A stretch of DNA of 64,000 nucleotides from an uncultured Lactobacillus sp. (GTDB lineage: Bacteria > Bacillota > Bacilli > Lactobacillales > Lactobacillaceae), in assembly GCA_946481335.1 (NCBI GenBank), contig CAMLMR010000001.1, positions 10,187-74,186 of the forward strand, given 5' to 3'. A program made the translations under genes and the position numbers. Shown here in pieces: positions 17,235 through 64,000 of this stretch (the stretch's first letter is position 1; every line of letters begins with the position of its first letter). Below the pieces are notes generated by a model. That model searched no databases, was not told where the DNA came from, and saw only the letters and a program-made list of their open reading frames with translations.

Positions 17235-17235
17235 T

Positions 17236-17392: not shown

Positions 17393-17992
17393 ATGGATTT
17401 AAAAGATAAAACAATCGCGGTTTTAGGTGATTCTGTTACCAAAGGTTTTGACGGCACCGCTAATCTACGATACAACTACCCACGATACTTAGCCAAATAC
17501 TACAATTGCCATGTTTTCAATAAGGGCATTAACGGCGCAACTATATATGAAACACTAGAAAAAGAAATCGAAAAAATCAAAGACAAACAATACGACGTTA
17601 TCATCCTAATGATTGGTACTAACGATTACGGTCATCTAGACGTTCCTTTAGTAAGAATATTGTCGAAACTAACCACCCTGGTTCGTAAGCTAATAAGTCA
17701 ACATAGTAAAGCTAAGATTTACACCGTCTTACCACTAACTCGTTATGATAACGATCAAAATGCAGCTAATGTTGTTCGTTACGCGGACTATACCTTTAAC
17801 GACTTATTAAATGGTATCGCAGACGTTTACTCTGCCTTCCAGTTGCCATTCATCGACTGGCGCGAATATAATCCAGAGTTCATTACCGACTTTAACTATA
17901 AGGAAATGTATCAGGATCAACACGTCCACCCAAACGCCTATACCTATCGTAAACTCGCCTTTTACATCGGTGACTTCATCAAAAATAATTAA
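17393..17992 (+). CDS. SGNH/GDSL hydrolase family esterase
   Basis: Block I LGDSVT, block II GING, block III GTND, block V DQHVHP; ATG 17393 follows RBS ggag. Confidence 0.9.
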   Translation: MDLKDKTIAVLGDSVTKGFDGTANLRYNYPRYLAKYYNCHVFNKGINGATIYETLEKEIEKIKDKQYDVIILMIGTNDYGHLDVPLVRILSKLTTLVRKLISQHSKAKIYTVLPLTRYDNDQNAANVVRYADYTFNDLLNGIADVYSAFQLPFIDWREYNPEFITDFNYKEMYQDQHVHPNAYTYRKLAFYIGDFIKNN

Positions 17993-36529: not shown

Positions 36530-39500
36530 TTACTCTTTATTAATCCAAGTCTTATTGGCGGTAATGTACTTACCATGACCAATGTATAGTCTTGTAATGT
36601 TCTTGTATTCAACGGCCTTCAATACCTTGATCTTAGCGCCAGCCTTAATACGTCCAACAGCGTGCTTCTTAGTGAAGCTTGGACTGTTATAGATAACAAT
36701 ACCTTGACGTCTAATTACACGGTAAGATTTCTTGTTATTTTGCTTATTAACTGCATAATAACCATCGGCATAGTCATAACTGTCTACATACTTGCCACGG
36801 ACCTTCAATAATAGGTGACCTGCAGAATACTTGTATCCGGTTACCTTATGAACTGAAGTGTGGTTTCTGGTTGCGTTTAGACTAAATACATACTTAGGAA
36901 CACTATCAAAGTCATTCTTTAGACTTACATAATGTTTATTAGCGGAAACGTATTCGCCATTACCTAATGATAGTCTGGTAATTCCATTTGATTCCACAAC
37001 CTTTTCAACATGGAATTGAGAACCGTATGCCATGAAACGTTTACGATTGCGTTTTTCGAAACTGGTTCCTTCATATACCCATACACCTTTATGAGCTGAA
37101 ACAATGTAATCGTTGGTAGGTTCATTGATTGAGTAGTACTTTCCATTTTTCTTCTTAATATCATTCAATTGTTCTTGAAGATCATTAATATCGGATTGGT
37201 CTTGCTTAATTGTCTTAGCACTTTGAGCATCCCTATCATTGAATGATTGAGTTGCCTTGGCTAACTCATCCTTGTATTGAGCTTGCAATGATTGAGCTTG
37301 ACTTGCTAATTGTGATTGTTGAAGAGCATATGCTTCGTTTGAAGCAGCTTCTGATTTAGCTTTAATAAATGCAATTGCTGTTTCGTATTCTGAAGTCACT
37401 GTTTGCTTAATTAACTTAGCTTGGACGTCAGCTTGACTAGCAGCTTGGCTCTTGGCTGCACTTAAAGCAGCTTCATTTTCAATCGCTTGTGAGCTTAGTT
37501 GAGCATCTCTTTGTGCATTTAGTGAAGCAATTGCACTTGAGTAGTCAGTGCTCATTGCAGCGATTAAGCTATCAGCCTTGGAGTTAGCAGCACTAACTGC
37601 AGCTTGTTTGTCTCTATCAACTTGTGAACTCAATGATGCAATTTGACTAGCAAATTCAGAGTTAGCTGAATTTGATGAGGCAAAGTATTGGCTTTCAAGA
37701 GCAGCTTGCTTAGAAGCAATTTCGCTATCAGCAACACTTCTTGCAACGCTAGCTGCACTTGATGTAGCACTATCAATTTCTGCTTGGGCAGAACTTCTTT
37801 GATTTGCCATCAAACTGTCGTACTTGTCTTTAATAGCTTTGGCTGCATCTGCATTAGATTTAGCAAGACTATCAAATTGGGCTTGAGCTGAGCTATTCAT
37901 TGCGTTTCTAACGTCTTCAATTGCTTGACTTGCGGCTCTAGATTGTTGGTCATTCTTATCGTTTAATGACTTAACTTGGTCGCCGAATGATTGAGCATAT
38001 GAATCTGCAATTGACTTAGCATAGCTAGTAGCTGAACTTGATGCGGAATTAACAGTTGAATCAATGATTGATTGGGCAACTGATGAAGCAGCTTCACTGT
38101 CTGCACTAGCCTTGGACATTGCTTGGTTCAATGCAGCTTCATTGGCTTTTGAAGTCGCAATTGATTGTTGAGTAGCAATGCTTTGTGCAGTTGATCTGGC
38201 AGAAGCGACAACTGAATTTTGGATTGATTGAGCGTTTTGTGAAGCAAAAACGCTATCGTTGTAGGCTTTTTGTTGAGCCAAACTCAATGCTTGTGAGTTT
38301 GCAACTGATAATGAATCCATGTTTGATTGAGCAATACTTTGCGCTGTTGATTGAGCTGATTGCATTGCTGCTTGAACACTTTGTGCTACTGATTGACTAT
38401 CAGCAATTGATTTAGCTTCAGCTGCACTTTGTGCTGATGAGTTAGAAGCATTCATTGAATCAATTGCAGCCTTGGCTTGTGCTGATGATAGGCTTCTAGC
38501 TGATTCAACCGCACTAGCAATGTCTGCTTCAGCCTTTTGTTGAGCAGCCCTACTATCTGCCAATGATTGAGCGTTGGCTGAACTCAATGCACTTTGGAAT
38601 TGAGCTTGCAATGAAGCAATGTTTGCAGCAGCAACGCTTCTTTCCATGCTTTGTGCTAATTCAACGTCATTTTCTGCGCTTTGAACAGCAGCTAAACTGT
38701 CTTGTTGAGCCTTTAATTGAGCAGCTGAAATTGCAGCTTGGTTGGCACTATTTAGTGATGAAATCAAAGAGTTGGCTGAGTCTTGAGCTGATTGGCGAGC
38801 TGAATCTAATGCTGAGTTCTTAACAGATTCGGCACGGCTTGATGCAGAAACACTATCATCTTGAGCCTTTTGTTGGGCTGAGCTTAATGCTTGTGAATTA
38901 GCAGCTGATTGACTGTCTAATGCAGCTGTAATTGATTGTTGAGCAAAAGAACTAGCAGCACTTAGTTTAATATCATATAGACTTTGTGCCATCATGCTAT
39001 CTTCTAATGCCTTTCTTTGAGCATCGGCTAAAGCCTTTGAGTTTGCAGATGAAACTTCTTTAGATTGTTCAATTGCAATGCTTTGTGCTACTGATTGAGC
39101 AGAAGAAACAGCATCTGTCTTTTCTGATTCGGCAGCTTGACTCGCTTTAATGATACTTGCTTGATAACTTGATGCTTGATCATTTAATGCTTGTGCATAT
39201 GAGTTTTCAATTGTTTGAATTTGCGCATCTGTAACAGTCTTAGCGGCTGACTTAGCAGATGATACCGCATCATCAATCAATGATTTTGCATAGCTTGAAG
39301 CAGCTTCACTGTCAGATGATGACTTAGATTGGGCATCAGCCAATGATTGAGCGTTGGCAGAAGATTGACTTGCAAAGACAGAGTTTGCTGAATTTTGAAC
39401 AGATTGGGTAGCGGAAGCAACCGCTGAGTTCAAGATTGATTGAGCAATTGAAGATGCTGCCAAACTATCTGTTCTAGCCTTTGTAACGGCTGATGATAAT

Positions 39501-42500
39501 GCCGCTGAATTAGCCAATGATGTTGCTGTGGATTGAGCTGAGGCTAATGATTGGGCAGATGCAATCGCATCGTTAACAGCTTTTTGCATTGCTGCTTGAG
39601 CTGATGATGATGCGTTTTCACTGTCAGCAATCGCCTTATTCTTAGCAGCTTCTAATACTGCTGCATTGGATGATGCTACAGAATTTGCTTGTTGTTGTGC
39701 CAAACTATTTGCAGCACTAACAGCACTTTCTACCGCTTTAGTTTGGGCAGCTTCGTATGATTGAGCCATTTGGGTTTGCTTGTCAGCATATGAACTGTTC
39801 AATGAATTAATTGCGTTTGAATTATTCAATGCCAATTGGCTAGCATAGCTTTGTAGTGAGCTAATGCTATTAGCCGCGTTTAGCGAATCCTTGCGGTAAG
39901 CGTCAGTCAAACTGCTTAGTTGATCTGAATATGAGTCGGCGATACTGTCGGCCCTACTGTTAGCAGCTGACATTGCTAAACTATTCTTAAGAACAGCTGC
40001 CAAACTATCAGCCATCAAACTACTAATCTTTGTGGAGTAGCTATTCATTTGAGAAGTAGCACTATCAATCTTAGATTGGGCAGCCAACGAACTAGCTTCT
40101 GAGTCCTTTTGCAGTCCTTCAATGTAACTGCTGTATGAATTAGCTAAAGATTGTCTTTCAGCGGCAACTGAACTTCTAGCGCTATCAGCAGCAACACTTT
40201 GTTCATATGAGTTCTTTGATTGTTCGGATGCAATTGATGCCGCCTTTGATGCAGCATTTGCAATAGCAGCTGATGATTGCAATGCTGCTTGCTGAGCTTC
40301 GCTTTGTGCCTTTGAAATTGTGGCGTTAAAGCTACCTTGCAAACTACTCAATTGACTTTCGTATTGAGTAACTTGGTTAGAAGCTTGAACTTGTTCGGCT
40401 TCTAGACTATCAATTACTGCTTCGTATGAAGCAACTACTGAGCTATAAGCACTTGAAGCAGCTGAGCTAGCTGCGCTAGCTTCACTGGATGAAGCGATAC
40501 TTTCAGCAGTGATACTACTAATTGCATCAGCATTGATACTTTTTTGGTAATTTGCGCTAGATTGTAAATCAGCCAATGACTTGTTGGCATCGGTAATTTC
40601 TTCTTTTAGTTGTTTAATAACCTTGTCATAGTCTTTATTCAAACTATTAATTTGTGCTTGATATGAATCGTTCAATACTTGTTGAGCGGAAGAAACCGCA
40701 ATACTCTTATCATTACTTGCAGCAGACGCAGCTGATTTAGCATCCGCAATTGATTGCTTAGTTAGACTACCAATCTTCTTATCGTTCTCAATAGATGTTG
40801 CAAGTGATTGTGCACTCGCAGCTTCTTCGGCTTGGCTCTTAGCCTTTGCAATTGCGTCGTTTACTGCTGATGACATCAATGATTGAGCGGCATTGGAGTC
40901 ACTAATTGCCTTTGCCTTCAAATCATCGATGGCTTTCGAGTTGGCAGCTGACATTTGTTGAATTTGATCGGAAGCTTGCTTAGAAGCAATATCTTGAGCG
41001 GACTTAACAGCTGCAGCAATAGCAGTTTGCGCACTGTTTGATGCACTAGTTAAATCTTGTTCATTCTTCTTGTTCAAAGCATCAACTGCAACCGAGTTAG
41101 CGCTACTTTGAGCAGCAAATTCAACGGAAGCTTGACTTGATGCTTCACTGGTTGCCTTTGCGGCAGCGTCGCTAATTGCTGTATTGGCACTACTTTGGTC
41201 TTGTTCTAATTGTTGTGCCTTTTGGGCATTAATTGCGGCAATGGCCTTTGAATTAGCTTCAGCCAATGATGATAGCTTAGAATCAGCTTCTGTTTGTGCT
41301 GATGATACAGCAGAATCGACTGCTGATTTAATGCTAGCTTGAGCATTTTTAGCTGCAGCTTCTGAGTCAGCTTTGGATTTGGCAGTTAAATCATCAATCG
41401 CCTTTGAATTAGCAATAGAAGTATTGTATGCTTCAGTGCTTGCGCTATCTTGGGCAGATTTAATTGCACTCTTCATTGTTTCTTCAGCTTGACTGGATGC
41501 GTTTGTTGAATCAAGTGCTGCTTGACTCTTCAAACTATCGATTGCGGCTGCATTAGATTGTGCAACAGCAATTGAATCTGCAGTAGCCTTTGCTTGAGCT
41601 TCTTGTTGGGCCTTAGCAACTGCTTCTGCAATTGCAGATTGAGCACTGTTTGATGCATTGATTGAGTCTTGTTGACCCTTTGCTTGAAGACTATTAATTA
41701 CATTCGCATTATCATCGGCAACTGATTTAGCCACTGAACTTGCTGAATCTTGTGCCGACTTAACGGCATCACTCATTGCCTTAGCAGCTGCATTAGAAGC
41801 ATTTACTAAACTAATATTGTATTGTGTTTGAAGATTATTAATTTGTTTTTCATTAGCCAATGAAGCTTCAATTGATTGCACCTTAGCGTTGCTTACTGCT
41901 ACAGATTGAGCACTTGATGCTGCTAATGAAATAGCTATTTGAGCACTGTTTGATGCATTGATTGAATCTTGTTGGCTTTTAGCTTGAAGACTACTAATTG
42001 CATTTGCATTATCATCAGCGATTGATTTAGCCACTGAACTTGCTGAATCTTGGGCTGACTTAATCGCACTTTGCACTGTTGATTGAGCGTTGCTAGATGC
42101 ATTAATTGAATCTTCTCTAGATTGATCTTGCAAACTCTTAACAGCTTTTGAGTTGCTGATTGATGTTGCAGTTGATTGTTCTGCAGCAGAATCGATTGCA
42201 GACTTAATTGCGCTGTTAATTGCTGAATTTGCACTTTGAGCAGCAGCCAAAGAATTCGATTCACTCTTTTGTTGTAGTGAACTAATAGCTGAATTATTAG
42301 CTTCAGTAATTGATTGAATTATGCTATCAGCACTTTGTTTAGCGGCAGCACTCGCTGATGATACAGCATTTGACAAAGCTTTAGCCGCTTGGTCAGCAGC
42401 TGCCTTGGAATCGGCTAAACTTTTGTTCTTAAGAACTTCAATTGCATTAGCATTTTCCATACTTTGTTTAGCAAAAGTATCGTTAGCTGAATTAGTAATG

Positions 42501-45500
42501 CTTGTAATTGCACTACTCAATGCTGTAGATGCAGCATTAGAAGCTGCAGTTGAGTCAGCAATGTATTGAGCTTGTTGAGCAGAACTGCTTTGCGCGAATT
42601 CTTGTCTCAATGATGCAATTGTGCTGTCTAAGATAAATTGTGCTGAAGAACTTACTGCAGTCGCAGTAGAACTTTGGGCACTTGTGACAGCTGCATTAGC
42701 TGAGTTGTTCAAATTTTGAACCGCTGTTTGATAGCTAGTTGTTAGACTATCAGTTAAGCTTTGGTTGGCACTAGTTAAATTAGCCATTGCTGTCACAGCC
42801 GAATTTTGGACGCTGGTAATTGTGCTCGAACGCAATGAGTCAGCTAGTGATTGAGCCGCCTTTGAATCAGCAATTGATTTTTGAGCAAAGTCATTAATCA
42901 TTTGTTGGATTTGCGCATTAATTTGTGCTGTCCTTTGACGATTAATTTCTTGCATTGAGTCTGTTGCTGATTGAATTGCAGCAGCCTTGTCAATCGCTGC
43001 TTGACTGGATGCAGCAGATAGACTGTCGTTAAATTGATTTTGAATTTGTGATAATTGTAGAGAATTTTGGGTGCTTATTTGATCTTGGATAGCTTTTGCA
43101 GATGATTGCAATGAGCTAATAGCTTGAGCCACCGCATTATTTTTATCGATTGCGGCTGAGTTAATAATGTTTTGCACTTGAATTGCAGCTGAATCAATCA
43201 ATGCTTGTTGGCTGTTAGCCGCATTAATTGATGCTTGTTGTGATGCCAAGGCTGCTTGTTGTGAAATATTATCAGCACGTTGTGATGCATCAGAAACTTG
43301 GCTTTGCAAAGCATTAATTGAATTTTGGTAATTAGCACTAGCAATTGCTGAATTACTTGCTGCAATACTGTTGGCAATTGAATTAGCGGTGCTAGAAGCT
43401 TGATTAATTGCATTAGCAATTGATTGAGCTAGTGCAGCCTTTGAATTGGCAATGTATGCAGCAGCTGATGAATCATTGGCAGCTGCGATTGAATCGGCAC
43501 TTTCTGGCTTTGGTTTTACATACATTAAGAAACCATACTTATCCTTTAACAAAGAACCTGTAAGGTAGTAGTTTGGATTCAAGTTATTGGCATTCAATAA
43601 TGATGCATTAAGTTGTTGAGGACTAGCAGCGTCATAAGAAGAAACCTTTGTTGGATCGTATGAATATGCAACAGTCCCTGTTCCATACGCATTTCCTTGA
43701 GAGTCAATAAAATCAACAGTTGTTGTTCCGTAAACATAGTTACCATTAACAGCAACTTGATATTGACCACCATTATTAATGACAGTTCCATCAACTAAGT
43801 GGTAGCTGTTGGAATCAAGATTTCCTAGATCGACTAGTCTTGGATTGTTATTGTTATCAAAGACGATGGTTCCGGTTCCATGAGTATTTCCTTTGCTATC
43901 AACGAAGGTAGCACTCATTGTCTTTCCAATGTTATTTGGAAGAACTTCCATTGTGAAGTTATCGTCGTTAGTATCCTTAATTAGTTGGGCGTTTGGACTG
44001 ATGTGGTAGTTACTGCTACCTAAATTTCCATAATCAACTAATTGAGGCACGTTGCTTCCACTAACGTTAACTTGACCAGTGTATGGATTACCGTTGCCAT
44101 CAAGAACGGCAACTCCGTTGTTGGTAAAAGTTACTGTTGATGTTCTCGCGTTCTTTAATACACCGATTGTGTAGACACCATTTGATGATTGTTGGGCAGA
44201 TGTATTGTAACCAACATGATAACCACTGGCGTTCAAACTAGTGGTATCACCCAATGTAGTAGTTCCGTCATCATTCAAGTAGACAGTTCCAGTAAGTGGA
44301 TTATTGTTGCTATCAGTCAAAACTTGGTTATTAGGTGTCACAAAGTTTAATGTTGCACTTTGTTGATTAACCACTACCGCATATTGACCACTGTTACGAC
44401 TATCGGCTGAAATGCTTGGGTTACTTGCATTTGGCACATAGTAATATTGAGTTTGTAAGTTACCCAATGTGTAAGTGTTTGTAATACTTCCGTCGTTATT
44501 GACGTTAACAGTCCCTGTCCCAACCTTTTTACCAGTCGTGCTGTAGAAGTTTAGTGGTTGTGGTGTCGCTGCAACCTTCAATGTAACAATATAGTTGTAG
44601 TTACCATCCATTTTTAGTTGTGAACCAACATTAGCTACATAGTTAGTTGAATTAATATTGTAGTAGTTAGTGACACTGTTCAAAGTATTATTGGAACTGT
44701 TTAGTACCGCCATCCCCATTGCTGTGGTACCATCGGTTCCGGTAAGTGATTTACCGTTGACATCATAGAAAACAACCGGAGTCAAAAATGTTGGATGCGT
44801 TCCCTTAGCTTCAACGGTAGCGTTTGCACTATATGCACTAACGGTAGGTGTTGAATTGACAGTTAGAACATATACGGTTGAGTTGTTAGGGTTATTTAAT
44901 TGGTTTACAGATTGATAAGGAGCTGAACTTAAGATTTGGAAATTATTTGGATTTGTATTATTAGGTACTAATCCACCAGAGGCACCAGATCCAGCAAATT
45001 GAGGGTTACCATTAGCATCATAGAAATAAACGGTGACAGGAGAACTATAGCTATCGCGGTAGCCTAGACCTTGTGCTAAATTAGCACGATACACAGCCGC
45101 ATTACTATCGATATCACTTTGTGCGGATGAAGCCATTTGATCAATTGCATCTTGGGCTTCAGATAAGCTAAGTCCACTTAGTGAGTTTTGGGTATTACTG
45201 CTTGAACTACTTTGGTTTACGCTAGTGTTATTACTTGAAACACTAGTTACGTTCGCAGATGAACTATTTGTTTCTGATGAAAAGCTACTTGCTTGCGTAT
45301 TTGATGAAACGTTGCTTGAGCTAGCAGATTGTGCAGTTGCTTTTGCACTGCTGCTTTTCACCACCGCAGCTTGTCCCCCGTTTTTAGAAGCAGCGCTCGC
45401 GTTTACTTGATTAGTCATCAAGGTAAAGCTGGCCGCACCAAAAAGAGCAAAGGAGGAAACGGATACTACGACCCAATTCTTCTTTACTTTTTTCATCATT

Positions 45501-45544
45501 TTCTTGTCATTAATTTTTCTAATTTTTTGCTTATTGTATTTCAT
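36530..45544 (-). CDS. Giant secreted surface protein (3004 aa): beta-repeat head, Ser/Ala/Gln-rich helical stalk, basic C-terminal module (DUF5776-like)
   Basis: Uninterrupted ORF; KKVKKNW signal peptide; about 7 beta modules; about 2100-aa periodic S/A/Q region; two ITRL.(L/I)G.G.Y..ANK C-terminal modules; no LPXTG. Confidence 0.9.
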   Translation of the reverse strand: MKYNKQKIRKINDKKMMKKVKKNWVVVSVSSFALFGAASFTLMTNQVNASAASKNGGQAAVVKSSSAKATAQSASSSNVSSNTQASSFSSETNSSSANVTSVSSNNTSVNQSSSSSNTQNSLSGLSLSEAQDAIDQMASSAQSDIDSNAAVYRANLAQGLGYRDSYSSPVTVYFYDANGNPQFAGSGASGGLVPNNTNPNNFQILSSAPYQSVNQLNNPNNSTVYVLTVNSTPTVSAYSANATVEAKGTHPTFLTPVVFYDVNGKSLTGTDGTTAMGMAVLNSSNNTLNSVTNYYNINSTNYVANVGSQLKMDGNYNYIVTLKVAATPQPLNFYSTTGKKVGTGTVNVNNDGSITNTYTLGNLQTQYYYVPNASNPSISADSRNSGQYAVVVNQQSATLNFVTPNNQVLTDSNNNPLTGTVYLNDDGTTTLGDTTSLNASGYHVGYNTSAQQSSNGVYTIGVLKNARTSTVTFTNNGVAVLDGNGNPYTGQVNVSGSNVPQLVDYGNLGSSNYHISPNAQLIKDTNDDNFTMEVLPNNIGKTMSATFVDSKGNTHGTGTIVFDNNNNPRLVDLGNLDSNSYHLVDGTVINNGGQYQVAVNGNYVYGTTTVDFIDSQGNAYGTGTVAYSYDPTKVSSYDAASPQQLNASLLNANNLNPNYYLTGSLLKDKYGFLMYVKPKPESADSIAAANDSSAAAYIANSKAALAQSIANAINQASSTANSIANSIAASNSAIASANYQNSINALQSQVSDASQRADNISQQAALASQQASINAANSQQALIDSAAIQVQNIINSAAIDKNNAVAQAISSLQSSAKAIQDQISTQNSLQLSQIQNQFNDSLSAASSQAAIDKAAAIQSATDSMQEINRQRTAQINAQIQQMINDFAQKSIADSKAAQSLADSLRSSTITSVQNSAVTAMANLTSANQSLTDSLTTSYQTAVQNLNNSANAAVTSAQSSTATAVSSSAQFILDSTIASLRQEFAQSSSAQQAQYIADSTAASNAASTALSSAITSITNSANDTFAKQSMENANAIEVLKNKSLADSKAAADQAAKALSNAVSSASAAAKQSADSIIQSITEANNSAISSLQQKSESNSLAAAQSANSAINSAIKSAIDSAAEQSTATSISNSKAVKSLQDQSREDSINASSNAQSTVQSAIKSAQDSASSVAKSIADDNANAISSLQAKSQQDSINASNSAQIAISLAASSAQSVAVSNAKVQSIEASLANEKQINNLQTQYNISLVNASNAAAKAMSDAVKSAQDSASSVAKSVADDNANVINSLQAKGQQDSINASNSAQSAIAEAVAKAQQEAQAKATADSIAVAQSNAAAIDSLKSQAALDSTNASSQAEETMKSAIKSAQDSASTEAYNTSIANSKAIDDLTAKSKADSEAAAKNAQASIKSAVDSAVSSAQTEADSKLSSLAEANSKAIAAINAQKAQQLEQDQSSANTAISDAAAKATSEASSQASVEFAAQSSANSVAVDALNKKNEQDLTSASNSAQTAIAAAVKSAQDIASKQASDQIQQMSAANSKAIDDLKAKAISDSNAAQSLMSSAVNDAIAKAKSQAEEAASAQSLATSIENDKKIGSLTKQSIADAKSAASAASNDKSIAVSSAQQVLNDSYQAQINSLNKDYDKVIKQLKEEITDANKSLADLQSSANYQKSINADAISSITAESIASSSEASAASSAASSAYSSVVASYEAVIDSLEAEQVQASNQVTQYESQLSSLQGSFNATISKAQSEAQQAALQSSAAIANAASKAASIASEQSKNSYEQSVAADSARSSVAAERQSLANSYSSYIEGLQKDSEASSLAAQSKIDSATSQMNSYSTKISSLMADSLAAVLKNSLAMSAANSRADSIADSYSDQLSSLTDAYRKDSLNAANSISSLQSYASQLALNNSNAINSLNSSYADKQTQMAQSYEAAQTKAVESAVSAANSLAQQQANSVASSNAAVLEAAKNKAIADSENASSSAQAAMQKAVNDAIASAQSLASAQSTATSLANSAALSSAVTKARTDSLAASSIAQSILNSAVASATQSVQNSANSVFASQSSANAQSLADAQSKSSSDSEAASSYAKSLIDDAVSSAKSAAKTVTDAQIQTIENSYAQALNDQASSYQASIIKASQAAESEKTDAVSSAQSVAQSIAIEQSKEVSSANSKALADAQRKALEDSMMAQSLYDIKLSAASSFAQQSITAALDSQSAANSQALSSAQQKAQDDSVSASSRAESVKNSALDSARQSAQDSANSLISSLNSANQAAISAAQLKAQQDSLAAVQSAENDVELAQSMERSVAAANIASLQAQFQSALSSANAQSLADSRAAQQKAEADIASAVESARSLSSAQAKAAIDSMNASNSSAQSAAEAKSIADSQSVAQSVQAAMQSAQSTAQSIAQSNMDSLSVANSQALSLAQQKAYNDSVFASQNAQSIQNSVVASARSTAQSIATQQSIATSKANEAALNQAMSKASADSEAASSVAQSIIDSTVNSASSSATSYAKSIADSYAQSFGDQVKSLNDKNDQQSRAASQAIEDVRNAMNSSAQAQFDSLAKSNADAAKAIKDKYDSLMANQRSSAQAEIDSATSSAASVARSVADSEIASKQAALESQYFASSNSANSEFASQIASLSSQVDRDKQAAVSAANSKADSLIAAMSTDYSSAIASLNAQRDAQLSSQAIENEAALSAAKSQAASQADVQAKLIKQTVTSEYETAIAFIKAKSEAASNEAYALQQSQLASQAQSLQAQYKDELAKATQSFNDRDAQSAKTIKQDQSDINDLQEQLNDIKKKNGKYYSINEPTNDYIVSAHKGVWVYEGTSFEKRNRKRFMAYGSQFHVEKVVESNGITRLSLGNGEYVSANKHYVSLKNDFDSVPKYVFSLNATRNHTSVHKVTGYKYSAGHLLLKVRGKYVDSYDYADGYYAVNKQNNKKSYRVIRRQGIVIYNSPSFTKKHAVGRIKAGAKIKVLKAVEYKNITRLYIGHGKYITANKTWINKE
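41641..42063. repeat. Imperfect direct repeat inside the stalk-coding region
   Basis: 41641-41763 versus 41941-42063: 110 of 123 nt identical by manual count, exactly 300 nt apart. Confidence 0.9.
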
Positions 45545-45741: not shown

Positions 45742-45783
45742 AAAAAAGACCCGTTAGGATCAATTCCTAACGAGTCTTTTTTT
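45742..45783 (-). terminator. Terminator after the 5649-aa gene
   Basis: aaaaaagac(c)cgttagga-tcaat-tcctaacg(a)gtcttttttt. Confidence 0.85.
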
Positions 45784-48700
45784 ATTTAATTCTATTTACC
45801 CAAGTCTTATTAGCAGTGATGTATTCACCGTGGCCAATGTAGAATCTGGTAATTCCATAGAATTTCATTACTTTTCTTACTCGCACTAATGTGTTCTTGC
45901 GGATGTGATTTACAGCATTGCGATTAGTAAATTTCTTAGCCTTGTGAACCAAGATTCCATGGTTTCTAATTACGAGAACTTGTTTAGTTGGACGTACATA
46001 GTATGCATGGATTGTGCCCTTAGCATTAATGAATCCCTTCTTGATACGGTACTTAGTGCCGTTCTTGGTATTAACGATTCTTAATACCTTGTATGCATTT
46101 GCCTTGTTTCTTGGTCTCTTGGCGAAGTACTTAACAGCATTTTTACGAGTGAAGTGAGTATTTACGTATACTCCACGTTTGTTAGTCCAGTATACATAAA
46201 GCGGTGTCTTCTTACGTCCTAATGCAACGTAAGTCTTGTTAGAAGTTACGTAACGGCCGTTGCCTAGGTATAGACGAGTAATACCGTAGAACTTAACAAC
46301 CTTCTTCACATGGATTAATGCACCTTGACGTAGTCTAGTTACACGTCTGCGATTGCCATAGTGGAACTTCTTATCGGTATGAACTAATACACCAGTCTTT
46401 CTGATTACACGGAATAATGAATGGTTGGTACGGTAGTATGCATCCCTAATATTCTTGTTGAAGTAGATGTATCCACCATCAACCTTCAAACGAGGATACT
46501 TATTATGATCTAAGACAACGCCTCTAACCTTGAAGACATGTGCTAATCTTCTTGGCTTCTTAGCATAGCCCTTCACACGGTTCTTAATTGTGAAGTGAGC
46601 TGAACTGTGTAGGTAAAGTCCCTTAACACTGTATACGTATGAAGGAGCCTTTCTCATCAATTCACTCTTGTATGCTTGCATATATCTGTTTACATAATCA
46701 GCATCTTTGTTCTTCATATTTTCAACAGGTAATAATTTAGCAGCACGACTGCGTCCAGCAGATTCAGGGGATTGACCTGCAAATGACTTAGTTGCGACTA
46801 CATGCATTGATGTAGTGCCATCACTATTAACAACTGTCTTAATGACTGTGTTTTCGTATGTGGTGTAATTGTAGCCATGACCATTATTAACAACCACTTT
46901 GTGTTGAACTGTTAATGAACCATCTTCATTGACGTGAGCAACAACGTTACCAATTGTAGAAGTACCGTCACTAGCATCGAAATGAACATTATCGACATTG
47001 ACAGTTCCGTCAGCATTGATTGGGAAGGATTCAACATGGTAGTCACCATCATTATCCTTAACAACCTTTGAACCAGCAGGAACAATGTACTTGCCATCTG
47101 ATGACTTAGTATTCTTAGTTACAACAATTTCACCCTTGTCGTTTCCCTTTACAGGAAGCTTACCAACAGATTGTGTATCCTTACCATCGTGGTTAAAGTG
47201 AACGTTATTGATTTCATCTTTTACCGGTGTCAATACAGGAGTAGTTGGTTCAGGTTCATTATTTGGAATAGTTTCACCAGTGTATCCAGGAATGTTGGAT
47301 TCAATTGTCTTGCTACCATCGTCATTAACGTGAACAGTGGCCGCATTTTCAATTGGTTGAGAATCAGCACCTGGACGAGCAGGTTCTTTTTGATTTTGTT
47401 CAATTGGTGTTGCTGAAACGTGATATGAAACGTTCTTGTGTGCATCCATTCCAATGGTAATTGGTTCACCAGCATCAGCTTGGTAAGCACGATTTGGCAC
47501 AGTTGGATCTGTCACAACCGCGGTCTTATCAACAGTTAAATCACCAGTATCTGGGTCAACCTTAGCCACTAACTTGCCAACTACCGACTTAGTCTTATCA
47601 TCCTTATCGTCAAAGAATGCATTTTCGATATCAATAGTGCCATCGGAATTCATTGATAACTTGTTACCAGTAACTTCGTATTCACCAGTAGCTTTATTCT
47701 TTGTGACAGCTGAACCAGCTGGAATGATGTAGTAGTTACCATCATTACCCTTAACTACCTTGGTCTTAGTTGTGGTAATGTTTCCATCATCATCAACTTT
47801 AGCCTTGAAGTTAGTTTGGGATTGTGGCTTACCACTAGCGTCATTGACGTTTGCGTTGGCAATTTCTACTTCACCATTACCATTTACAGGTAATGAGTTG
47901 CCATGATAAGTGCCATCATCATGCTTGGTAATGATTGTACCAGCTGGAATGATGTACTTGCCGTCAGATGACTTAGTAGTCTTAGTTACGACAATGTTGC
48001 CATCTGAATCACCCTTAACAGGCAAATCAGCTGAAGAACCAGTGTCCTTACCGTCATTGTCGAAGTGGACATTAGATGCTGTGGCTTGAACTGGTGTCAA
48101 GATAGCATGACTAGTATCTTCATCGGCTGGTAAGTTGGTTTGACCCTTGAAACCAGGAACGTTAGAAATGATGTTCTTAGTTCCGTCACCATTATAGTGT
48201 AGTGTAGCTGCATCAGATTGAGTCTTACCGTTTTCACCTAATTGAGCAGGAATCTTTGCATCTTGTTGAATTGGAGTGGCATCAACGTGGTATTCAACTC
48301 CGCCTTTGCCATCAGGTTTAATAATAATAGTGTCACCGGAGTTAACCTTGTATGCCTTGTTTGGATCAGTTGGGTCCAATACTACAGTATCGTTCTTAAC
48401 GGTTAGCTTACCAGTGTTTTCATCAACGTTAGCAACCAAACTACTGATGGTTCCCTTACCAGGTTCGAACTTATCGTCGTAATGAGCATTGTCGATAGTT
48501 ACGGTTCCGTTATTAACAGGAAGAGCGGTTCCAGGAACTTCATATTCTCCAGTTGATGGGTTCTTAGTTACCTTTGAACCAGCTGGGATGATGTAGTCAT
48601 TGCCATCATCACCCTTGGCGATTTCATCCTTAGCAGTTGTGATGTTACCTTGGTCGTCGACCTTAGCCACAATGTCCTTGTGAGCCTTAGTATCACCCTT

Positions 48701-51700
48701 TGCATCATTAACGTTGGCGTTATTGATGGTGATAGTTCCGTCTTCATTGACAGGGAATGAATCACCGTGATACTTGCCGTCATCACCCTTAACAAGTTCT
48801 GATCCCTTTGGAATCATGTACTTGCCATCTGATGACTTAGTGTTTTGAGTAACAATGATATTACCTTTATCGTCACCCTTAACAGGAACATCACCAGTTG
48901 AACCGGTCGCCTTCTTGTTGTTATCGAATGAAACATCATGCGCAACGTCAGTAACTGGTGTCAAAACTGCTTTAGATGTATCAGCATCGTTAGCAAGTCC
49001 CTTTTTACCAGTGTATCCTGGCACATTGGAAATGATGTCCTTAGTTCCATCATTGTTGTAATGAACCTTAGCAGCATCTTTTTCAACCTTACCATCGTTA
49101 CCCAATTGAGCATCGATATTCTTATCTTGGTCAACTGGAGTAGCGTCAACGTGGTATTCAATACCACCCTTACCATCTGACTTGATGGTAACTGTTGTCC
49201 CTTCGTTAACTTGGTAAGCCTTAGTTGGGTCGTTTGGATCTGTGACAACAGAAGTCTTGTTAACGGTCATTGTACCGTTATCAGGATTTACTTGAGCGGT
49301 AATTGGTCCAACGACTGACTTAGTCTTATCATCCTTGTCATCGTAATGAGCATCAGAGATGTTAACGACACCATCACTTGGTGAAGGCAACTTGTCTCCA
49401 ACAGTTTCGTATGAACCATCATCTGGGTTCATATTAACGTTAGAACCACTTGGTACGATGTAGTAATTACCATCGTCACCCTTGGTAATGACGTTACTGC
49501 TTGTAGTGATGTTACCTTGATCATCTGTATCAACCGGTAGTTTTTGACTACGGTTTACTTCAACGTGACCTGCTTGGTCAACAACGGAAGCATTATCAAT
49601 TTCACCGTTTGATGGGTAAATTGGTACTTGATACAAGGTCTTGGATGGTTGAGTTGAATCAGTTACTGTTTGAATTTGTCTACCGGTTGCAAACTTGTAG
49701 CCATCTGGAATAGCTGAAACTGCTTTGTAAGCATCGCTAGTACCAGCGAAGATTGGAGTGTTGTCCTTATCGTTGGCGTATACGAAGTACTTGTCAGTAT
49801 CAACGGAAACAGTCTTGTTAGTGTAAATATTGATGAATTGAACGTTATGTCTTGCTGAGTAAGGTGAGTTATCAGCGATGACAACCTTCGCATTTTCATC
49901 AACGTTGCCGTTATTATCCATCCAGTCAACTACTTGTGAACCTGGTTGGAATACATGGTATCCATGACCTTCATATCCACCATCTGGCAACTTGGCGTCT
50001 AGAACATGACCAGTGGTCTTATCAATAATGACTTGGCCAGTTCCCTTGTTCAAACCATCGTTGTTATCGATGAAGTTAGCGTTATTAATAACGGCTGTAT
50101 CATCTTTAGCAGTCAATGAGTATGAACCGTCATCGTTATTAATTGGTGTACCAGCATTTGCTTGGTATGCATGATTACCCTTAACAACGTGAACACCGTT
50201 ATCGTCAGCTAGTGTCATCTTACCAGTGTTCAAATCAATGGTTGCATGAACATCAACAACATCGATTACATTGCCTTGTTCATCCTTAACGGCAACGTTT
50301 GGAAGTGTTACCTCACGTTTGCCAGCATCGTATTCGTATGATGGAACGGTCCAGTTACCATTGCTATCCTTAGTAACTTCACTACCTGGAAGAATAATTC
50401 TGCCATTTGGTGTTGTTGCTGGAGAAGTAACCTTAATGGTTCCGTCATCTTGACCTTGAACAGGTAGGTTATCAACTGTTGAGTTGGTATCTTTACCTTG
50501 ATTATCCAAGACATGGACATTGTTCATAGTACCAGTAGTTGGTTTCAATACTGGGTTAGTTGGTAGTGGATCACCGTTTGGAATGGTTTCACCAGTAAAT
50601 CCAGGGATGTTAGAAATAATAGTCTTGCTACCGTCTTCGTTAACATGAACGCTGGCAGCACCATCTTGAGCAGTTCCCTTTGGACCAACTTGGGCACTAA
50701 TCTTCTTATCTTGTTCAATTACAGTTGCAGGGATGTGGTATTCAGGTTCACCATTAGCATCCTTTTCAATTGTAATCGCATCACCTGGGTTTACTTGGTA
50801 AGCCTTGGTTGGATCGTTTGGATCAGTAACAACAGTGGTCTTGTTAACGGTCATTGTCCCGTTAGTTGGATCAACGGTTGCTGAAACACTACCGATGACT
50901 GACTTAGATGGATCAGCCTTATCGTCTAGATGAGCTTGGTTAATAGTTACGGTACCATCAGCGTTAGCTGGTAACTTGGTACCTTGAGCTGTGTAACTGC
51001 CATCATCTGAACTGTTTGGTACAACTGAGCTGCCCTTGGTAATGACGTAGTAATTGTTGTCCTTCCCCTTGGAAATGACATCCTTAGTTGTGCTAATTGA
51101 GCCATCATCATTAGTCTTAACAGGTAATGTTTGGCTGTGGTCGACCTTCACGTCACCCTTTTGGTCCAATACACTAGCGTTGGTGATTTCACCTTGGGCC
51201 GGAATGACTGGAACGATGTAGGTGCGCTTATCCTTATCGGTATTGTCATCATTGTTAGTTTGTTCAACGATAATTTGCTTGCCACTAGCATATTGATATC
51301 CGTTTGGAATACCACTGACAGCTCTTTGAGCTTCAGTACTACCTGCAAATAGTGGTAGTAAATCATCATCGTTAATGTTAACAGTTGGGTTATTAGTATC
51401 GTCTGTAAATACTTGGTTGTTGTAAATGTTTAAGAACTTAACGTGAGTGTTTGAATGGTATGGTGCGTTATCAGTAACTCTGACAATTGCATTGTCATCA
51501 ACGTTACCATTTGCATCACTCCATTGAACGACTTGACCAGTTGGATCGTAAACATGGAATCCGGCGTCTTGGTTACCACCCTTAGTTGGTAGTTGGGCAA
51601 TCAAAACAGTTCCGTTTGACTTATCAACTCTGACGGTTCCAGTACCAACATGGTTGTTGTTAATAACATCAATCAATGTAGCATTGTGAATTACGGCAGT

Positions 51701-54700
51701 GTCGTTGTAAGTGTTTACGTACAACTTATCATTATCACGAACGACTGGAGTACCAACGTCGGATTGGTAAGCATCGGTGCTTGTAGTTGCGTGAATTCCT
51801 TGAATATTGGCAACAGTAAGTGTTCCGTGTTCTAGGTCAACGTTTGCAATTACATCTTGGTGATCAACGACGTTACCCTTATCATCCTTGATTGGAAGTT
51901 GAGGTAAAGTAACTTGTCTGTTTCCGGCATCGTAGTCGAATGCTTGGGCATGCCAGTTATCATCCTTGTCCTTGGTTACCTGAGTATTAGCAAGAATAAT
52001 CTTACCATCAGGTGTGATGGTTGATTTGTTGGTCTTGATAGTACCGTCATCACTACCGATTACTGATAAACCGTCAGCGGTATCGCCGGTATTATTACCG
52101 TTAATGTCGTCAATGTGAACACCATTTAGTGTTTGTTCAGCAGGTGTTAATACTACTGGAGATGGGATTGGTTGGCCTTCAGGAACGTTAAAGCCTGTAA
52201 AACCAGGAACGTTTGAAACAATTGACTTGCTACCATCATCATTTACATGAATCTTAGCTGCGCCATCAACTGATTGACCGTTCTTACCTGTCTTAGCAGC
52301 GATGGCTTGGTCTTGGGCGACCTTTTCAGCGTTGACGTGGTATGAAACATTGCCGTTTCCATCAACCACCTTAGTAATTGGTGAATTACTGTGGGCAATG
52401 TATACGTTGCCTTGGCTATCCTTAGTAACTGTTGGTTTGGCAACGCTCATGTTTCCGTTGTCATCCACCTTAGCAACTAGGCTACCTGATTGAGAAGTGT
52501 TATCTGATGCATCATAACTTCCGTTTGGAATGTTAATTGTGCCATCAGCGTTAAGTGGGAATGATGGAGCGTGGTAGTTGTTATCTGAACCCTTGGTTAC
52601 AGTTGAACCAGCAGGAATCATGTACTTACCATCAGATGACTTAGTGTTCTTAGTAACAACAATGTCACCATTTTCATTACCCTTAACAGGAACGCTTCCA
52701 GTGGAACCAGAATCAGTACCATTGTCATCGAAATGAACACCATTAATGACGTCATTAGTTGGTGTTAGGACAACGTTACCAGTATCTTGATCGACAGGAA
52801 CGTTGGTTTGACCAGCAAATCCTGGGATATTTGATGTAATTGTCTTAGTTCCGTTATCAGGATTGATTGTTACGGTTGCGGCATTGTCAATGCGTTGACC
52901 GTTATCACCGGTCTTGGCAGGGATATTTTGCTTTTCGTTTACAGCATGTGCAGCAACGTGGTATTGAACATCCCCATTTTCAAACTTAGGAGTAACTGTT
53001 TCACCTTCGTCGACTTGATAAATAGTACCATCCGGTGCCTTAGTTACTGATGCTTTGGCAATTGTGATGTCACCAGTATCAGAATCAACATTGACCGTAA
53101 TCTTACCTGGATATGAAGTATTAGCGTCCTTATCATATTGACCAGTTGTAATACTAAATGTTCCGTCTTGGTTTGCTGCGATTGTGTAACCATCAGCATG
53201 GTAAGTTCCATCTGCTTCTTTACGAACATTGGAACCTGCTGGAACAAAGTAATAGTTAGGGTCATCATTCATACCCTTAGCAACATGGTCTTTAGTAGTA
53301 GTGATAGTACCATCTTCGCTTGTGTTAACAGGTAGAGTGGTAACCGCCTTTTCTTGATTATCCCTACCATCAATAATGGCAGTTGGTAATTCAGCTTCGG
53401 TAGGAAGTACTGGAATGATGTATTCAGTATTTCCACCAGCAGTCTTGTTTACAATAATGTTCTTTGAAACATCATATACATATCCATCAGGTAATTTATC
53501 AATTGCTTGATATCCATCCTTAGTACCATAGTTGATTGGCAATCCATCAGAATGAGTTACCTTCAATGTATATTTCTTACTACTGTCGGTGAAGGTTTCA
53601 CCAGTGTATGAGTTCTTAAATGAAACATTGTTGATGAAGTCATATGGGTAGTTTTCAACAACCTTAACCGCAGCATTTGGATTAACATTGCCTTTTCCAT
53701 CATCCCATTGAACGACTTGAGTATCAGGGTCGTAAATGTGATAACCTTCTTTGTTACCACCTAGATGTGAAACGGAAGATAGGTCTGAACTAGGTAGTAC
53801 CTTACCAGTTGATTTATCGACATTAATAACGGCGGTTCCATCAATCTTGTCATTGTTTTGATCATACAAAGTAGCGTTGGTAATGGTTGCAGTGTCGTTC
53901 TTACTGTTTACGGTATATCCGTTACCAGTCTTAACAACTTCGGTACCATTATCGGCTTGATATGCGTAACCATTAGTTGTAATTGTGTGGATACCATTAT
54001 CAGAAGTTGGTTGATTCAAAGTAAGAGTTCCGTCAGGATTTAGCTTAGCGTAAATCAATTGACTGTTGATCTTCTTACCTTGGTCGTCATTGATAGTAGC
54101 ATCGTTAATTGTCACGTTACCATTTTTATCGATTGGAAGTGTTTGAACGTGATAGCTGCCATCAGTATTGATAGTTACTGGTGATTTAGCCATTGCGACA
54201 TTACTACCATCATCAGTATTAGTGTTGTTAACGACGGTGACAGTTCCATCATCATGACCTTCTACTTGCATGTTGGTGATAGTCTTTCCAGTATCATTAC
54301 TGTTGATATCATCAGCATGTGCAACAGGTAATGTGGTCTTACCTGGTGTTAATGTAGGAAGACTGGTATCTGTATCCATTGGAACGTTTTGGCTGCCAAC
54401 AAATCCAGGTACGTTTGATGTAATTGTCTTAGTACCATCAGCATTGGTATGGATGGTAGCTCCACCTTGAACAGTCTTACCGTTAGCACCGGTCTTAGCA
54501 GGCACTACTTGGTCTTGTTGTTGAACTTGTGAACTGATGTGGTATGAAGTTGTGCCATCAGCGTTAACGACTGGGGTAATCTTACTACCCTTCTTAGCAA
54601 CGTAAACATTGCCTTTTCCATCATCAACAGCAGTATCTGAGTTTACTTCTAATGAACCATCATCGTTTAAGTGAGCAACGACTGGTTTAACTGTGTTGGT

Positions 54701-63037: not shown

Positions 63038-64000
63038 CTATCTTATCTTCTTAACAAAAGTCTTGTTGGAAGTGAAGTATCTGTGGTGTCCTAGATATAG
63101 TCTAGTGATTCCGTAGTACTTAACAACCTTAACAACGTGAATTAGTTGGCCTCGACCAATTCTTCTAATCACATTGTGCTTGGTGTACTTCTTACCTGTA
63201 TGGATCAATGCTCCAGTAGGTTTGATTACACGGAATACCATTGGCTTGTTCTTGGTCTTCTTAGTGTTAGTGCTGTTATTAGTGGTCTTAGCAGTATTAC
63301 CACGGTAATATGCATCTTGGACCTTTTGACCAGCAGTAACAAGATGACCGCCAGCAATTACATATCTTGGTACACGGTTCTTGTAGTACTTGATACCAAC
63401 AACCTTAAACACTTGTGAATTATATCTTCTTGAGTACTTAAGTTTAACGACTCTTGAACCTTTAGAGAACTTGGTTCTTCTGTGGATGTAGATAGTCTTA
63501 ACGTTGTAGATATATCTTGGCATGTGTGCCTTGAATTGACGTTTGTATTCTGCAATATATGCTTTAGCATATGCTGCTGAATGGTTCTTAGTAATGCTCA
63601 TTGGAATTGGGCTACGCTTGATAGCACGCTTGCTTCCGTAAGTAGTACCAAGCTTAGTTTGACGGGCAGTTTCAATCTTAAATCCTTGGTTGTAAGTATA
63701 GGCGAATACTTGACCCTTAGCAGCTAATTGTTGTGCAGTTAGCTTCTTGTGAGTACGAGCACTTGCTTGAGCTGCCTTAACACCTTGACGGTACCCGTTG
63801 AAGGCGTTGGCATAAGTTTGACCACCTAGATCTAATAGTTCTTGGTTGGTCAATTGTGCCTTAGTCTTAGCCTTCTTCAGTGCGGCAATCGCAGTCTTAG
63901 CAGCTTTATAACCATTTACATAGTAACCAGAATTTGGATTTTGCATTTCGATGTTGTTAATTCCATCATTGAAACCATTACCAGTTAAATCGTAAGCCTT
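63038..64000 (-). CDS. C-terminal part of a third DUF5776-like surface protein (5' end beyond window)
   Basis: Frame is open from 64000 (KAYDLTGNGFNDG...), so the ATG at 63946 is probably internal. Contains Y..GY..G helical repeats and the same C-terminal module (YGITRLYLGHHRYFTSNK). Confidence 0.85.
   Translation of the reverse strand, partial: KAYDLTGNGFNDGINNIEMQNPNSGYYVNGYKAAKTAIAALKKAKTKAQLTNQELLDLGGQTYANAFNGYRQGVKAAQASARTHKKLTAQQLAAKGQVFAYTYNQGFKIETARQTKLGTTYGSKRAIKRSPIPMSITKNHSAAYAKAYIAEYKRQFKAHMPRYIYNVKTIYIHRRTKFSKGSRVVKLKYSRRYNSQVFKVVGIKYYKNRVPRYVIAGGHLVTAGQKVQDAYYRGNTAKTTNNSTNTKKTKNKPMVFRVIKPTGALIHTGKKYTKHNVIRRIGRGQLIHVVKVVKYYGITRLYLGHHRYFTSNKTFVKKIR

Follow-up and report, generated by a model that had tools for sequence, protein, structure and literature searches.

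Five consecutive giant genes were described in Apilactobacillus kunkeei by Pedersen et al. (Genome Biol Evol, January 2026; PMC12863079). One of the encoded proteins, Giant5, is presented in that study as serine-rich, as located upstream of the genes "tarM and gtfA", and as found only in A. kunkeei and two close relatives. AlphaFold3 (AF3) gives it a "2,000 aa single helix", which the authors suggest may be di- or trimeric, and the paper reports "13 repeats of 50 aa" for it; the words hendecad, heptad and periodicity are absent from the paper. The extracellular proteome of strain A0901 was found to contain all five giants, and particles were seen by negative-stain electron microscopy in the extracellular particle fraction of A. 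kunkeei (PMC10496945). The present work deals with the stalk of a Giant5 orthologue encoded in a stretch of 64,000 nucleotides, called the window below, from an uncultured Lactobacillus sp. (GenBank assembly GCA_946481335.1, contig CAMLMR010000001.1, positions 10,187 to 74,186). The protein family is already published, and the periodic structure of its stalk is not described there. With respect to the published account, the new elements are the units of 48 and 52 residues, a periodicity of 3.70 residues, its parsing into segments of 11 and 15 residues, an alanine-rich seam, insertions and deletions (indels) which preserve the helical phase, and serines which face outward. With a probability of about 0.55, the stalk is read here as a parallel, two- or three-stranded and weakly right-handed coiled coil with an alanine-rich core, which would act as a wall-anchored spacer rod.

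Several long non-heptad rods are available for comparison. In an undistorted alpha-helix, one turn takes 3.63 residues; hendecads (3.67) deviate little from a straight course, and pentadecads (3.75) supercoil to the right as strongly as heptads do to the left (PMC9858780, Martinez-Goikoetxea and Lupas). According to the same source, hendecad coiled coils that are dimeric, for example Scy and FilP of Streptomyces, require small residues in the core, mainly alanine. Like the rod predicted for Giant5, these two proteins are very long (more than 1,000 residues for Scy), consist nearly entirely of non-heptad coiled coil and have an alanine-rich core (PMC9858780). Unlike Giant5, they belong to the cytoplasmic cytoskeleton of Actinobacteria, carry a DivIVA-like domain at the N-terminus and have a period of ~3.64 instead of 3.70; they are not homologous to it. 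Walshaw et al., in 2010, reportedly described a super-repeat of ~51 residues in rods of the Scy/FilP type. Trimeric autotransporter adhesins offer a second comparison. Their stalks, of the type found in the adhesin of Shiga toxin-producing Escherichia coli (STEC), which combines one pentadecad with one or two hendecads and has polar cores, or in the right-handed segment of YadA, are also adhesin stalks with many polar core residues (PMC13580157). These adhesins are Gram-negative, obligate trimers with a C-terminal outer-membrane beta-barrel and an Asn/Ile core, without sequence homology to Giant5; the latter has a Gram-positive host, an SH3b-like wall-binding anchor, an Ala-dominated predicted core and a stalk roughly ten times longer.

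Tetrabrachion of Staphylothermus marinus is, like the rod predicted for Giant5, an extracellular stalk which spaces domains off the cell, non-heptad and straight to right-handed. It is nevertheless an archaeal S-layer tetramer of ~70 nm, made of pure hendecads (3.67) around a large-hydrophobic core with cavities, whereas Giant5 has a seam rich in Ala, Ser and Asn and combines segments of 11 and 15 residues (3.70). Finally, the serine-rich repeat proteins (SRRPs) such as GspB, Fap1 and the SRRP of L. reuteri, together with the staphylococcal SD-repeat adhesins, resemble Giant5 in several respects: a binding region at the N-terminus, a long spacer rich in Ser, a signal peptide of the KxYKxGKxW type and neighbouring glycosyltransferases of family GT4 (GtfA/Sdg family). 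They possess non-helical, heavily O-glycosylated spacers made of SX or SD dipeptides, are exported by SecA2/SecY2 in the case of the SRRPs, and are anchored by sortase, features which were not found in Giant5.

The closest described relative is Giant5 of A. kunkeei A0901, which has the same synteny, 55-57% identity to A. kunkeei loci and the same layout: a signal peptide, about nine beta domains without beta-solenoid, a helix of ~2,000 residues and a DUF5776/SH3b-like C-terminus. Compared with the A. kunkeei protein, the window copy comes from another species or subtype of the kunkeei group, the Giant5 proteins having 55-65% amino-acid identity.

Periodicity of the Giant5 stalk

The stalk covers residues 681-2800, encoded by positions 37145-43504 of the window on the minus strand. 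The gene and the successive parts of the stalk are listed below.

36530..45544, minus strand: whole gene, 3004 residues (open reading frame call), orthologue of A. kunkeei Giant5
42908..43504, minus strand: degenerate N-terminal part of the stalk, residues 681-879; Pro-free, period 3.68-3.69
40628..42907, minus strand: repeat array A, spanning residues 880-1639 and made of ~15 units (52 or 48 residues each; profile self-search, stacked units and regional spectrum)
39668..40627, minus strand: stalk centre, residues 1640-1959, where clean repeats are lacking; period 3.62, with several shifts of phase
37823..39667, minus strand: repeat array B, spanning residues 1960-2574 and made of ~12 units (52 or 48 residues each); period 3.71
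37145..37822, minus strand: C-terminal part of the stalk, residues 2575-2800, with the heptad segment INDLQEQLNDIKKK at its end; rhythm not significant

In a preliminary description, made from the DNA letters, positions 37140-43500 (residues 682-2802 of the 3004-residue open reading frame, ORF) had been interpreted as a hendecad stalk of about 2100 residues, probably a right-handed coiled-coil fibre. Taken as a whole, this interpretation is partly supported by the present analysis.

The composition of the stalk is compatible with a helix: residues 701-2800 contain no proline and five glycines. Ala (~23%), Ser (21%) and Gln (11%) dominate, against 123 Asp, 74 Glu and 115 Lys in ~2128 residues, and the very high content of Glu, Lys and Arg that, with salt bridges from i to i+4, is the signature of single alpha-helices (SAH/ER-K) is not found in the window stalk. 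The region is not a (Ser-X)n repeat, as had been stated from the beginning, since the identity at lag 2 (0.082) falls below the shuffled baseline (0.133). The autocorrelation peaks instead at lags 52 (0.243), 100 (0.238), 48 (0.223) and 4 (0.215). A self-search with a hidden Markov model (HMM) grown from one unit delimits ~40 tandem units of 52 or 48 residues and reproduces, at residues 1231-1587, the succession 52, 48, 52, 48, 52, 52, 52, 52 that had been counted by hand. The two lengths first proposed for the super-repeats are borne out in this way; their description as hendecads plus a remainder holds only in part, the units being best parsed as 11-11-15-15 (52 residues, 14 turns, 3.714 residues per turn) and 11-11-15-11 (48 residues, 13 turns, 3.69). 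In the same manner, small or hydrophobic residues do occupy positions a, d, e and h as claimed for a hendecad stalk, but pure 11-residue repetition is weak, with an identity of 0.143 at lag 11. It is the mixture of hendecads and pentadecads that produces a period of 3.70 and not of 3.67.

Fourier analysis places this period away from the heptad value of 3.5, in agreement with the expectation of 3.67-3.7 formulated earlier. The global spectrum peaks at 3.70 residues, with a power of 33 on the Kyte-Doolittle scale and 42 with an AILVMF indicator, against shuffle maxima of 11-12. In windows of 154 residues, the power is 5.2-6.4 at 3.70, 1.9-2.0 at 3.60 and 0.7-0.9 at 3.50, the value at 3.5 being that of the background; in windows of 44 residues, the maximum of the mean spectrum is at 3.70-3.72. 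Local periods have a median of 3.70 (interquartile range 3.68-3.72), and the N-terminal head of the protein, used as control, shows no such spectral peak. Minor peaks at 4.76, 4.34, 4.0 and 2.17 are harmonics of the super-period of 52/100 residues.

The rhythm spans residues 690-1640 and 1960-2575; it is confirmed, and refined to 3.70 from segments of 11 and 15 residues, over about two thirds of the stalk. Between residues 690 and 880, the local period is 3.68-3.69, slightly over the 95% level of the shuffles, with heptad-like stretches at ~700-760. It is strong, at 3.71-3.72, in both array A (880-1640) and array B (1960-2575), and between residues ~1010 and ~1570 the 3.70 component keeps its phase to within about +/-30 degrees. 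The stalk centre (1640-1960) has a weaker period of 3.62-3.63 and several phase jumps, and no significant rhythm appears in the regional spectrum over residues 2575-2800, that is the last ~225 of the stalk. The short heptad segments said to punctuate the stalk do exist, with local periods of 3.4-3.6: the heptad-like INSLNKDYDKVIKQLKEEI is found at residue 1632, just upstream of the stalk centre, and INDLQEQLNDIKKK at residue 2786. A large block duplication between arrays A and B was considered and rejected, the unit similarity matrix showing only local duplications of 100 and 200 residues.

The 48/52-residue unit

The repeat unit was characterized on a set of 215 units, 141 of 52 residues and 74 of 48, from ten orthologues, namely the window protein and nine named Apilactobacillus loci (L001-L009). 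Its consensus is N1-x-x-A4-[LI]5-x-x-[AL]8-x-x-K11-[AS]12-x-x-D15-S16-x-x-A19-x-x-x-A23-x-x-A26-I27-x-x-A30-V31-x-x-A34-x-x-x-A38-x-x-x-A42-...-[ILVT]49-x-x-A52. Position 5 (Leu/Ile) is hydrophobic in 100% of the units, Ala is found at positions 19, 23, 30, 34, 38 and 42 in 87-98% of them, and Asn1 and Asp15 are present in 85% and 84%, respectively. The seam formed along the unit advances by 3 or 4 residues, in 14 steps per 52 residues and 13 steps per 48, and the 4-residue gap between the two lengths falls in the last segment, which has 15 or 11 residues.

On a helical wheel drawn at the unit's own period, the large hydrophobic residues are centred at 0 degrees and the alanines at about -64 degrees. 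Asn1, at -5 degrees, stands at the centre of the seam, and Ser16 is also located in mid-seam; Asp, Glu and Lys are directed away from it. Serine accounts for 2-5% of the positions from -90 to 0 degrees, which correspond to the seam, and for 20-45% elsewhere, so that the outward orientation of the serines, proposed in the preliminary description, is verified.

Conservation among orthologues

A tblastn scan of genomes with residues 1-3004 found full-length relatives in Apilactobacillus only. Their identity to the window protein is 62-64% in A. zhangqiuensis, A. nanyangensis and A. waqarii, 55-57% in A. kunkeei and 44-45% in A. apinorum, and the stalk is carried by 11 of the 17 Apilactobacillus species genomes. 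When a six-unit profile was compared with 1.84 billion representative proteins, three matches were obtained, two of which are orthologue fragments. The third (P0005) was rejected on inspection as an unrelated repeat protein with eukaryote-like, chitinase-like domains. Since the two true matches are both fragments of orthologues, the repeat is an orphan restricted to this clade.

The stalks of all ten orthologues are Pro-free and 2038-2241 residues long; they contain 2-7 glycines and share the same composition and lags. The Pro-free stretches measure 2110 residues (three times), 2117 (three times) and 2128 in seven genomes, and 2038, 2227 and 2241 in the three others. In this respect Giant5 differs from the "periscope" repeat stalks: the copy number of the latter varies, whereas the length of the Giant5 stalk is nearly fixed at 46-65% identity. 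The top spectral peak is at 3.70 in eight orthologues out of ten, the two A. apinorum copies peaking at 4.34 (the 52/12 harmonic). A divergent, shorter homologue (G003), which comes from one of the 11 genomes with the stalk and has an ORF of 2153 residues and a stalk of 1253 residues containing one glycine, shows a sharper peak at 3.71, with a power of 75. The conservation of the alignment columns of the stalk is itself periodic, its spectrum having one peak only, at 3.70, with a power of 30 against at most 10 in the shuffles.

Indels are very rare in the alignment of the stalks. In the repeat arrays of these stalks, which are 46-65% identical, the independent events measure 4, 4, 4, 7, 7, 7, 19, 52 and 52 residues, each within about 0.15-0.3 of whole helical turns, and no indel of 1-3 or 5-6 residues occurs within the repeat arrays of the aligned orthologues. 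Two larger deletions, of 36 and 25 residues, are found in one species at the degenerate ends of the stalk. The conserved rhythm and the phase-preserving indels are unlike what is expected of a disordered spacer or of a repeat fold containing loops, and the conservation across the ten orthologues and these indels lend independent support to a continuous helical seam. Conserved glycine hinges were also sought and ruled out: no glycine column of the stalk is kept in more than six of the ten orthologues, and Gly1737 and Gly1810, in the stalk centre, are not conserved.

A predicted coiled-coil rod

An AlphaFold2 (AF2) model of a monomer of six units, computed with the orthologue alignment, contains helices at 2-203 and 212-311. 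The first of these, 202 residues long, passes unbroken across four unit boundaries, and the predicted local distance difference test (pLDDT) score is 84-90 over the first 70 residues. Foldseek found no match of the stalk model in the PDB, a result which is uninformative for a bare helix. The PDB sequence matches of the stalk, the head and the C-terminus were rejected as due to chance; among them are a heptad-repeat construct of coronavirus S2 (E 0.19), a fragment of Hia (E 0.09) and the Rep protein of adeno-associated virus (AAV; E 0.012).

The favoured reading can be detailed as follows. The stalk would be one very long alpha-helix with a seam made mostly of Ala, in which Ile, Leu or Val would recur about every 8-10 residues and one conserved Asn in each unit. 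Two, possibly three, of these chains would pair in parallel and in register. As an undistorted turn takes 3.63 residues and the seam 3.70, the seam should drift in the right-handed sense by about 1.9 degrees per residue; by simple arithmetic, a full right-handed turn would then take ~190 residues (~28 nm), which is about two times the pitch of the canonical left-handed coiled coil. If the rod is a C2 dimer, the Ile/Leu/Val stripe of each chain may pack on the Ala stripe of its partner, with Ser, Gln and the charged residues facing the solvent. The Asn found once per unit and the fixed, irregular order of 48 and 52 would make one register preferred. With a rise of 0.148 nm per residue, the clean arrays (1,375 residues) would form a rod of ~200 nm, which could reach ~310 nm if 2,100 residues were continuous. 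Because the wall anchor is C-terminal, the MucBP-like modules of the head would stand far outside the wall, and the rod would serve as a spacer, in what may be an adhesin, placing the binding modules past the cell wall and the exopolysaccharide layer.

Several observations weigh against this rod. Conserved polar residues (Asn1, Asp15 and Ser16) lie in its putative core. Large hydrophobic residues are sparse (~16% ILVMF) and Ser is a poor helix former, which makes its stability uncertain. The AF2 monomer of six units has a mean pLDDT of 65 and folds back once, at a pLDDT below 50. The coiled-coil predictors and the AF3 multimer runs applied to A. kunkeei Giant5 gave no consistent support (PMC12863079). 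Exact tandem repeats also pile spectral power on harmonics, and part of the sharpness of the global peak at 3.70 comes from the super-period of 100 residues; the persistence of 3.70 in short local windows indicates that the peak is more than a harmonic effect. Continuity over all 2,100 residues is doubtful, and the rod may be segmented in view of the phase jumps at 1640-1960 and of the last 225 residues devoid of rhythm.

A more ambitious version of the coiled-coil rod, held to be tentative and on balance doubtful, would make the stalk the longest continuous non-heptad coiled coil in bacteria, a parallel, right-handed rod of two or three chains in register, 200-300 nm long, with a core mostly of Ala and one buried Asn layer in each unit, in which the irregular but evolutionarily fixed order of the units would serve as a register code and the serine face would be O-glycosylated by the adjacent SdgA/SdgB-like pair. 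Under such a code, a slip of one unit would put the Asn layers and the Asp-Ser layers out of step. If true, Giant5 would be a sugar-coated helical fibre, the helical counterpart of the disordered SRRP stalk, of a kind not described for Gram-positive bacteria.

Alternative explanations

The published multimer predictions without consistent oligomer (PMC12863079), as well as the single helix shown by AF2 and AF3, could also be accounted for by a lone or marginally stable helix outside any bundle. Its 3.70 face would then be used for lateral contacts, for instance with wall polysaccharide, dextran or other Giants, or the helix would resemble those of late embryogenesis abundant (LEA) proteins and depend on hydration. 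Amphipathic 11-mer repeats which fold only on drying occur in LEA proteins (PMC6975979), and the host of Giant5 lives in high-sugar niches. This explanation is nonetheless unlikely: a seam whose period is 3.70 instead of 3.6, which remains coherent for over 500 residues and is kept in 11 species, is hard to explain without helix-helix packing, and 21% Ser disfavours an isolated helix. Stable single alpha-helices are moreover rich in Glu, Lys and Arg, and the charged residues of the stalk amount to only about 16%.

Somewhat less probable than the lone helix is an intramolecular fold-back near residue ~1800, by which arrays A and B would run antiparallel in an Alacoil-like hairpin of ~150 nm, with the head and the anchor at the same end. 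Ala-rich seams are indeed classic for antiparallel Alacoils. The unit boundaries of the two arrays are also near mirror-symmetric, with paired sums of 3599 +/- 4 in 13 pairs out of 13 (own arithmetic), but this symmetry is expected by chance because both arrays consist mostly of 52s with an alternating 48/52 block. The stalk centre, where the turn would be located, differs in period and contains several phase jumps, but neither Gly nor Pro is conserved at the putative turn. Fold-backs do appear in the AF2 model and, according to PMC12863079, in that of AF3; their sites however vary, with low confidence, and the authors of that study call them artefacts. In addition, about half of the Asn layers would be out of line owing to offsets of 4 residues, the binding head would return to the wall, and the G003 homologue maintains the rhythm in a much shorter stalk.

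An alpha-solenoid, in which each 48/52 unit would be made of two or three short stacked helices, is very improbable. It is suggested by Giant1-3 of the same cluster, whose 103-residue repeats are predicted to be stacked helical repeats (PMC12863079), and by a unit length within the range of HEAT-type repeats, and Asn1 and Asp15-Ser16 could be helix N-caps. However, proline is absent and glycine nearly so over 2,100 residues in ten orthologues, the units differ by just 4 residues, about one turn, and the indels keep the helical phase. The hydrophobic phase continues through the unit boundaries, four of which are crossed without a break by the 202-residue AF2 helix, and the large hydrophobic residues are too few for a solenoid core.

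A classical SRRP-type or otherwise disordered glycosylated spacer, to which about 21% Ser, the KxYKxGKxW-type signal peptide and the adjacent GtfA/Sdg-like glycosyltransferase pair might point, is highly improbable, given that Ser-X periodicity is absent from a Pro-free and almost Gly-free stalk, that helical periodicity is strong in both sequence and conservation, that LPXTG is absent, that the genome yields no match to Asp2 (TIGR03712) and a sole match to the SecY2 model which, at 187 bits, is under the cut-off of 249.6 and corresponds to the housekeeping SecY (SecA2 was not searched for), and that the authors of PMC12863079 likewise reject it for all Giants.

Other domains of the protein

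The stalk is bordered by a head and by a pair of C-terminal domains, and the remaining features of the protein are the following.

45395..45544, minus strand: N-terminal signal peptide of KxYKxGKxW type, residues ~1-50, KVKKNWVVVSVSSFALFGAASF
45170..45394, minus strand: low-complexity linker rich in Ser, Asn and Thr, residues ~51-125; 22 Ser per 100 residues
45077..45166, minus strand: conserved N-terminal helix, residues ~127-156, LSEAQ.AIDQMASSAQS (AF2, positions 8-37 of the head model)
43505..44872, minus strand: head, a string of small beta modules predicted to be MucBP/Mub-like, residues ~225-680 (AF2 and Foldseek)
36530..37138, minus strand: pair of SH3b-like DUF5776 domains at the C-terminus (PF19087 of Pfam, E 2.8e-26, in two stretches)

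Over the whole protein, the Pfam matches consist of DUF5776 and of a weak signal-peptide model (PF19258, residues 19-47, E 0.0054, under the curated cut-off), with none to the stalk or the head. The head, which has no PDB sequence match either, was modelled by AF2 with beta strands all along and a pLDDT of 70-92 in most modules. Its best Foldseek matches in the PDB are the cell-surface protein YwfG of Lactococcus (7yl4, E 1.3e-5) and an immunoglobulin-binding protein of Ruminococcus gnavus (7kpj, E 4e-5, probability 1.0), and its modules are therefore considered Mub/MucBP-like. The N-terminal helix (LSEAQDAIDQMASSAQSDIDSNAAVYRANLAQGL, residues ~127-156) has many invariant columns across nine orthologues and is among the best-conserved parts of the protein; its motif is also found in the divergent homologue of 2153 residues. 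It could be a docking or oligomerisation element.

At the other extremity, the two DUF5776 domains probably constitute a non-covalent cell-wall anchor of this presumably secreted protein. The protein ends in ...ITANKTWINKE after this pair, and the LPXTG sortase motif is absent from its C-terminus. Similarity to SH3b and a positive surface charge were reported for the C-terminal domains of Giant1-5 (PMC12863079).

Neighbouring genes and glycosyltransferases

Two neighbouring features accompany the Giant5 gene in the window.

45782..62731, minus strand: Giant4 orthologue, 5649 residues, upstream neighbour, with a beta-domain array and a DUF5776-type C-terminus (synteny, PMC12863079)
33341..36492, plus strand: convergent pair of GT4 glycosyltransferases, 544 and 504 residues, of SdgA/SdgB/GtfA/TarM type (NCBIfam, and Glycos_transf_1 of Pfam)

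The gene order is that of the Giant5 loci: Giant5 closes the giant cluster, downstream of Giant4, and next to it come the convergent tarM/gtfA-like genes and then rlmD. In all nine named loci, Giant5 is similarly found downstream of a Giant4-like gene and before the same convergent pair. The flanking rlmD shows ~90% nucleotide identity, which indicates that the window comes from a separate species or lineage of the kunkeei group. By similarity and synteny, the window protein is accordingly assigned as the Giant5 orthologue of a kunkeei-group Apilactobacillus.

The Giant4 orthologue has the same kind of signal peptide and C-terminus as the 3004-residue protein. Its apparent start is TTG, and it carries at least four basic C-terminal repeats related to DUF5776. 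Co-divergence of the giant4 and giant5 subtypes has been published, and an interaction between their products is conceivable on this basis. At the edge of the window, positions 63038-64000 (minus strand) encode the C-terminus of a further giant gene, presumably Giant3, with a DUF5776 match at E 1.8e-12.

The two glycosyltransferase genes are named "glycosyl hydrolases (tarM and gtfA)" in PMC12863079. Their best NCBIfam matches are SdgA and SdgB, full-length (E 9e-75 and 9e-60), both under the equivalog cut-offs, and their similarity to GtfA or TarM is weaker than to these staphylococcal proteins. SdgA and SdgB are the staphylococcal O-GlcNAc transferases for Ser-Asp repeats. The pair adjoins Giant5 in nine Apilactobacillus loci out of nine. 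Its exclusive co-occurrence with Giant5 is ruled out by related pairs (52-57% identity) in four congeners devoid of Giant5, one of these pairs being beside another giant gene; the pair is therefore linked to the giant cluster in general. In one of the congeners without Giant5 (L012, G013:C10, positions 9414-17984), the pair is directly upstream, on the same strand, of another giant surface-protein gene, whose product has a KxYKxGKxW-type start and a Ser/Asn-rich part followed by AY.NAQ.AY.AG helical repeats. An internal TAA stop was observed in the second gene of the pair in the matches from G001, G012 (A. apinorum-length Giant5) and three other copies. As judged from sequence, the two enzymes are candidate, unproven O-glycosyltransferases for the giant proteins. 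The serines of the stalk may be O-glycosylated, and the Ser-rich N-terminal linkers would be at least as likely a substrate as the helical stalk.

Meaning for the giant proteins

The known biology of the protein is unchanged by the discovery of its periodicity. The study of January 2026 left Giant5 as an unexplained "2,000-residue single helix", for which the 3.70 seam supplies a concrete structural hypothesis. This seam may also explain the missing coiled-coil support in PMC12863079, the likely reason for the inconsistent results being that heptad-trained predictors are blind to the non-heptad class. Under this hypothesis, the stalk is placed among the non-heptad rods, beside the autotransporter stalks, Scy and tetrabrachion, as an unusually long Gram-positive case with an Ala/Asn core. 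It would be a natural example, 1,400-2,100 residues long, of a coiled coil of the 26/7 type with a small and polar core, of relevance to coiled-coil theory and to the design of long rigid spacers. For the organism itself, the giant proteins to which this stalk belongs represent about 6% of the genome of a bacterium that serves the honeybee as a defensive symbiont.

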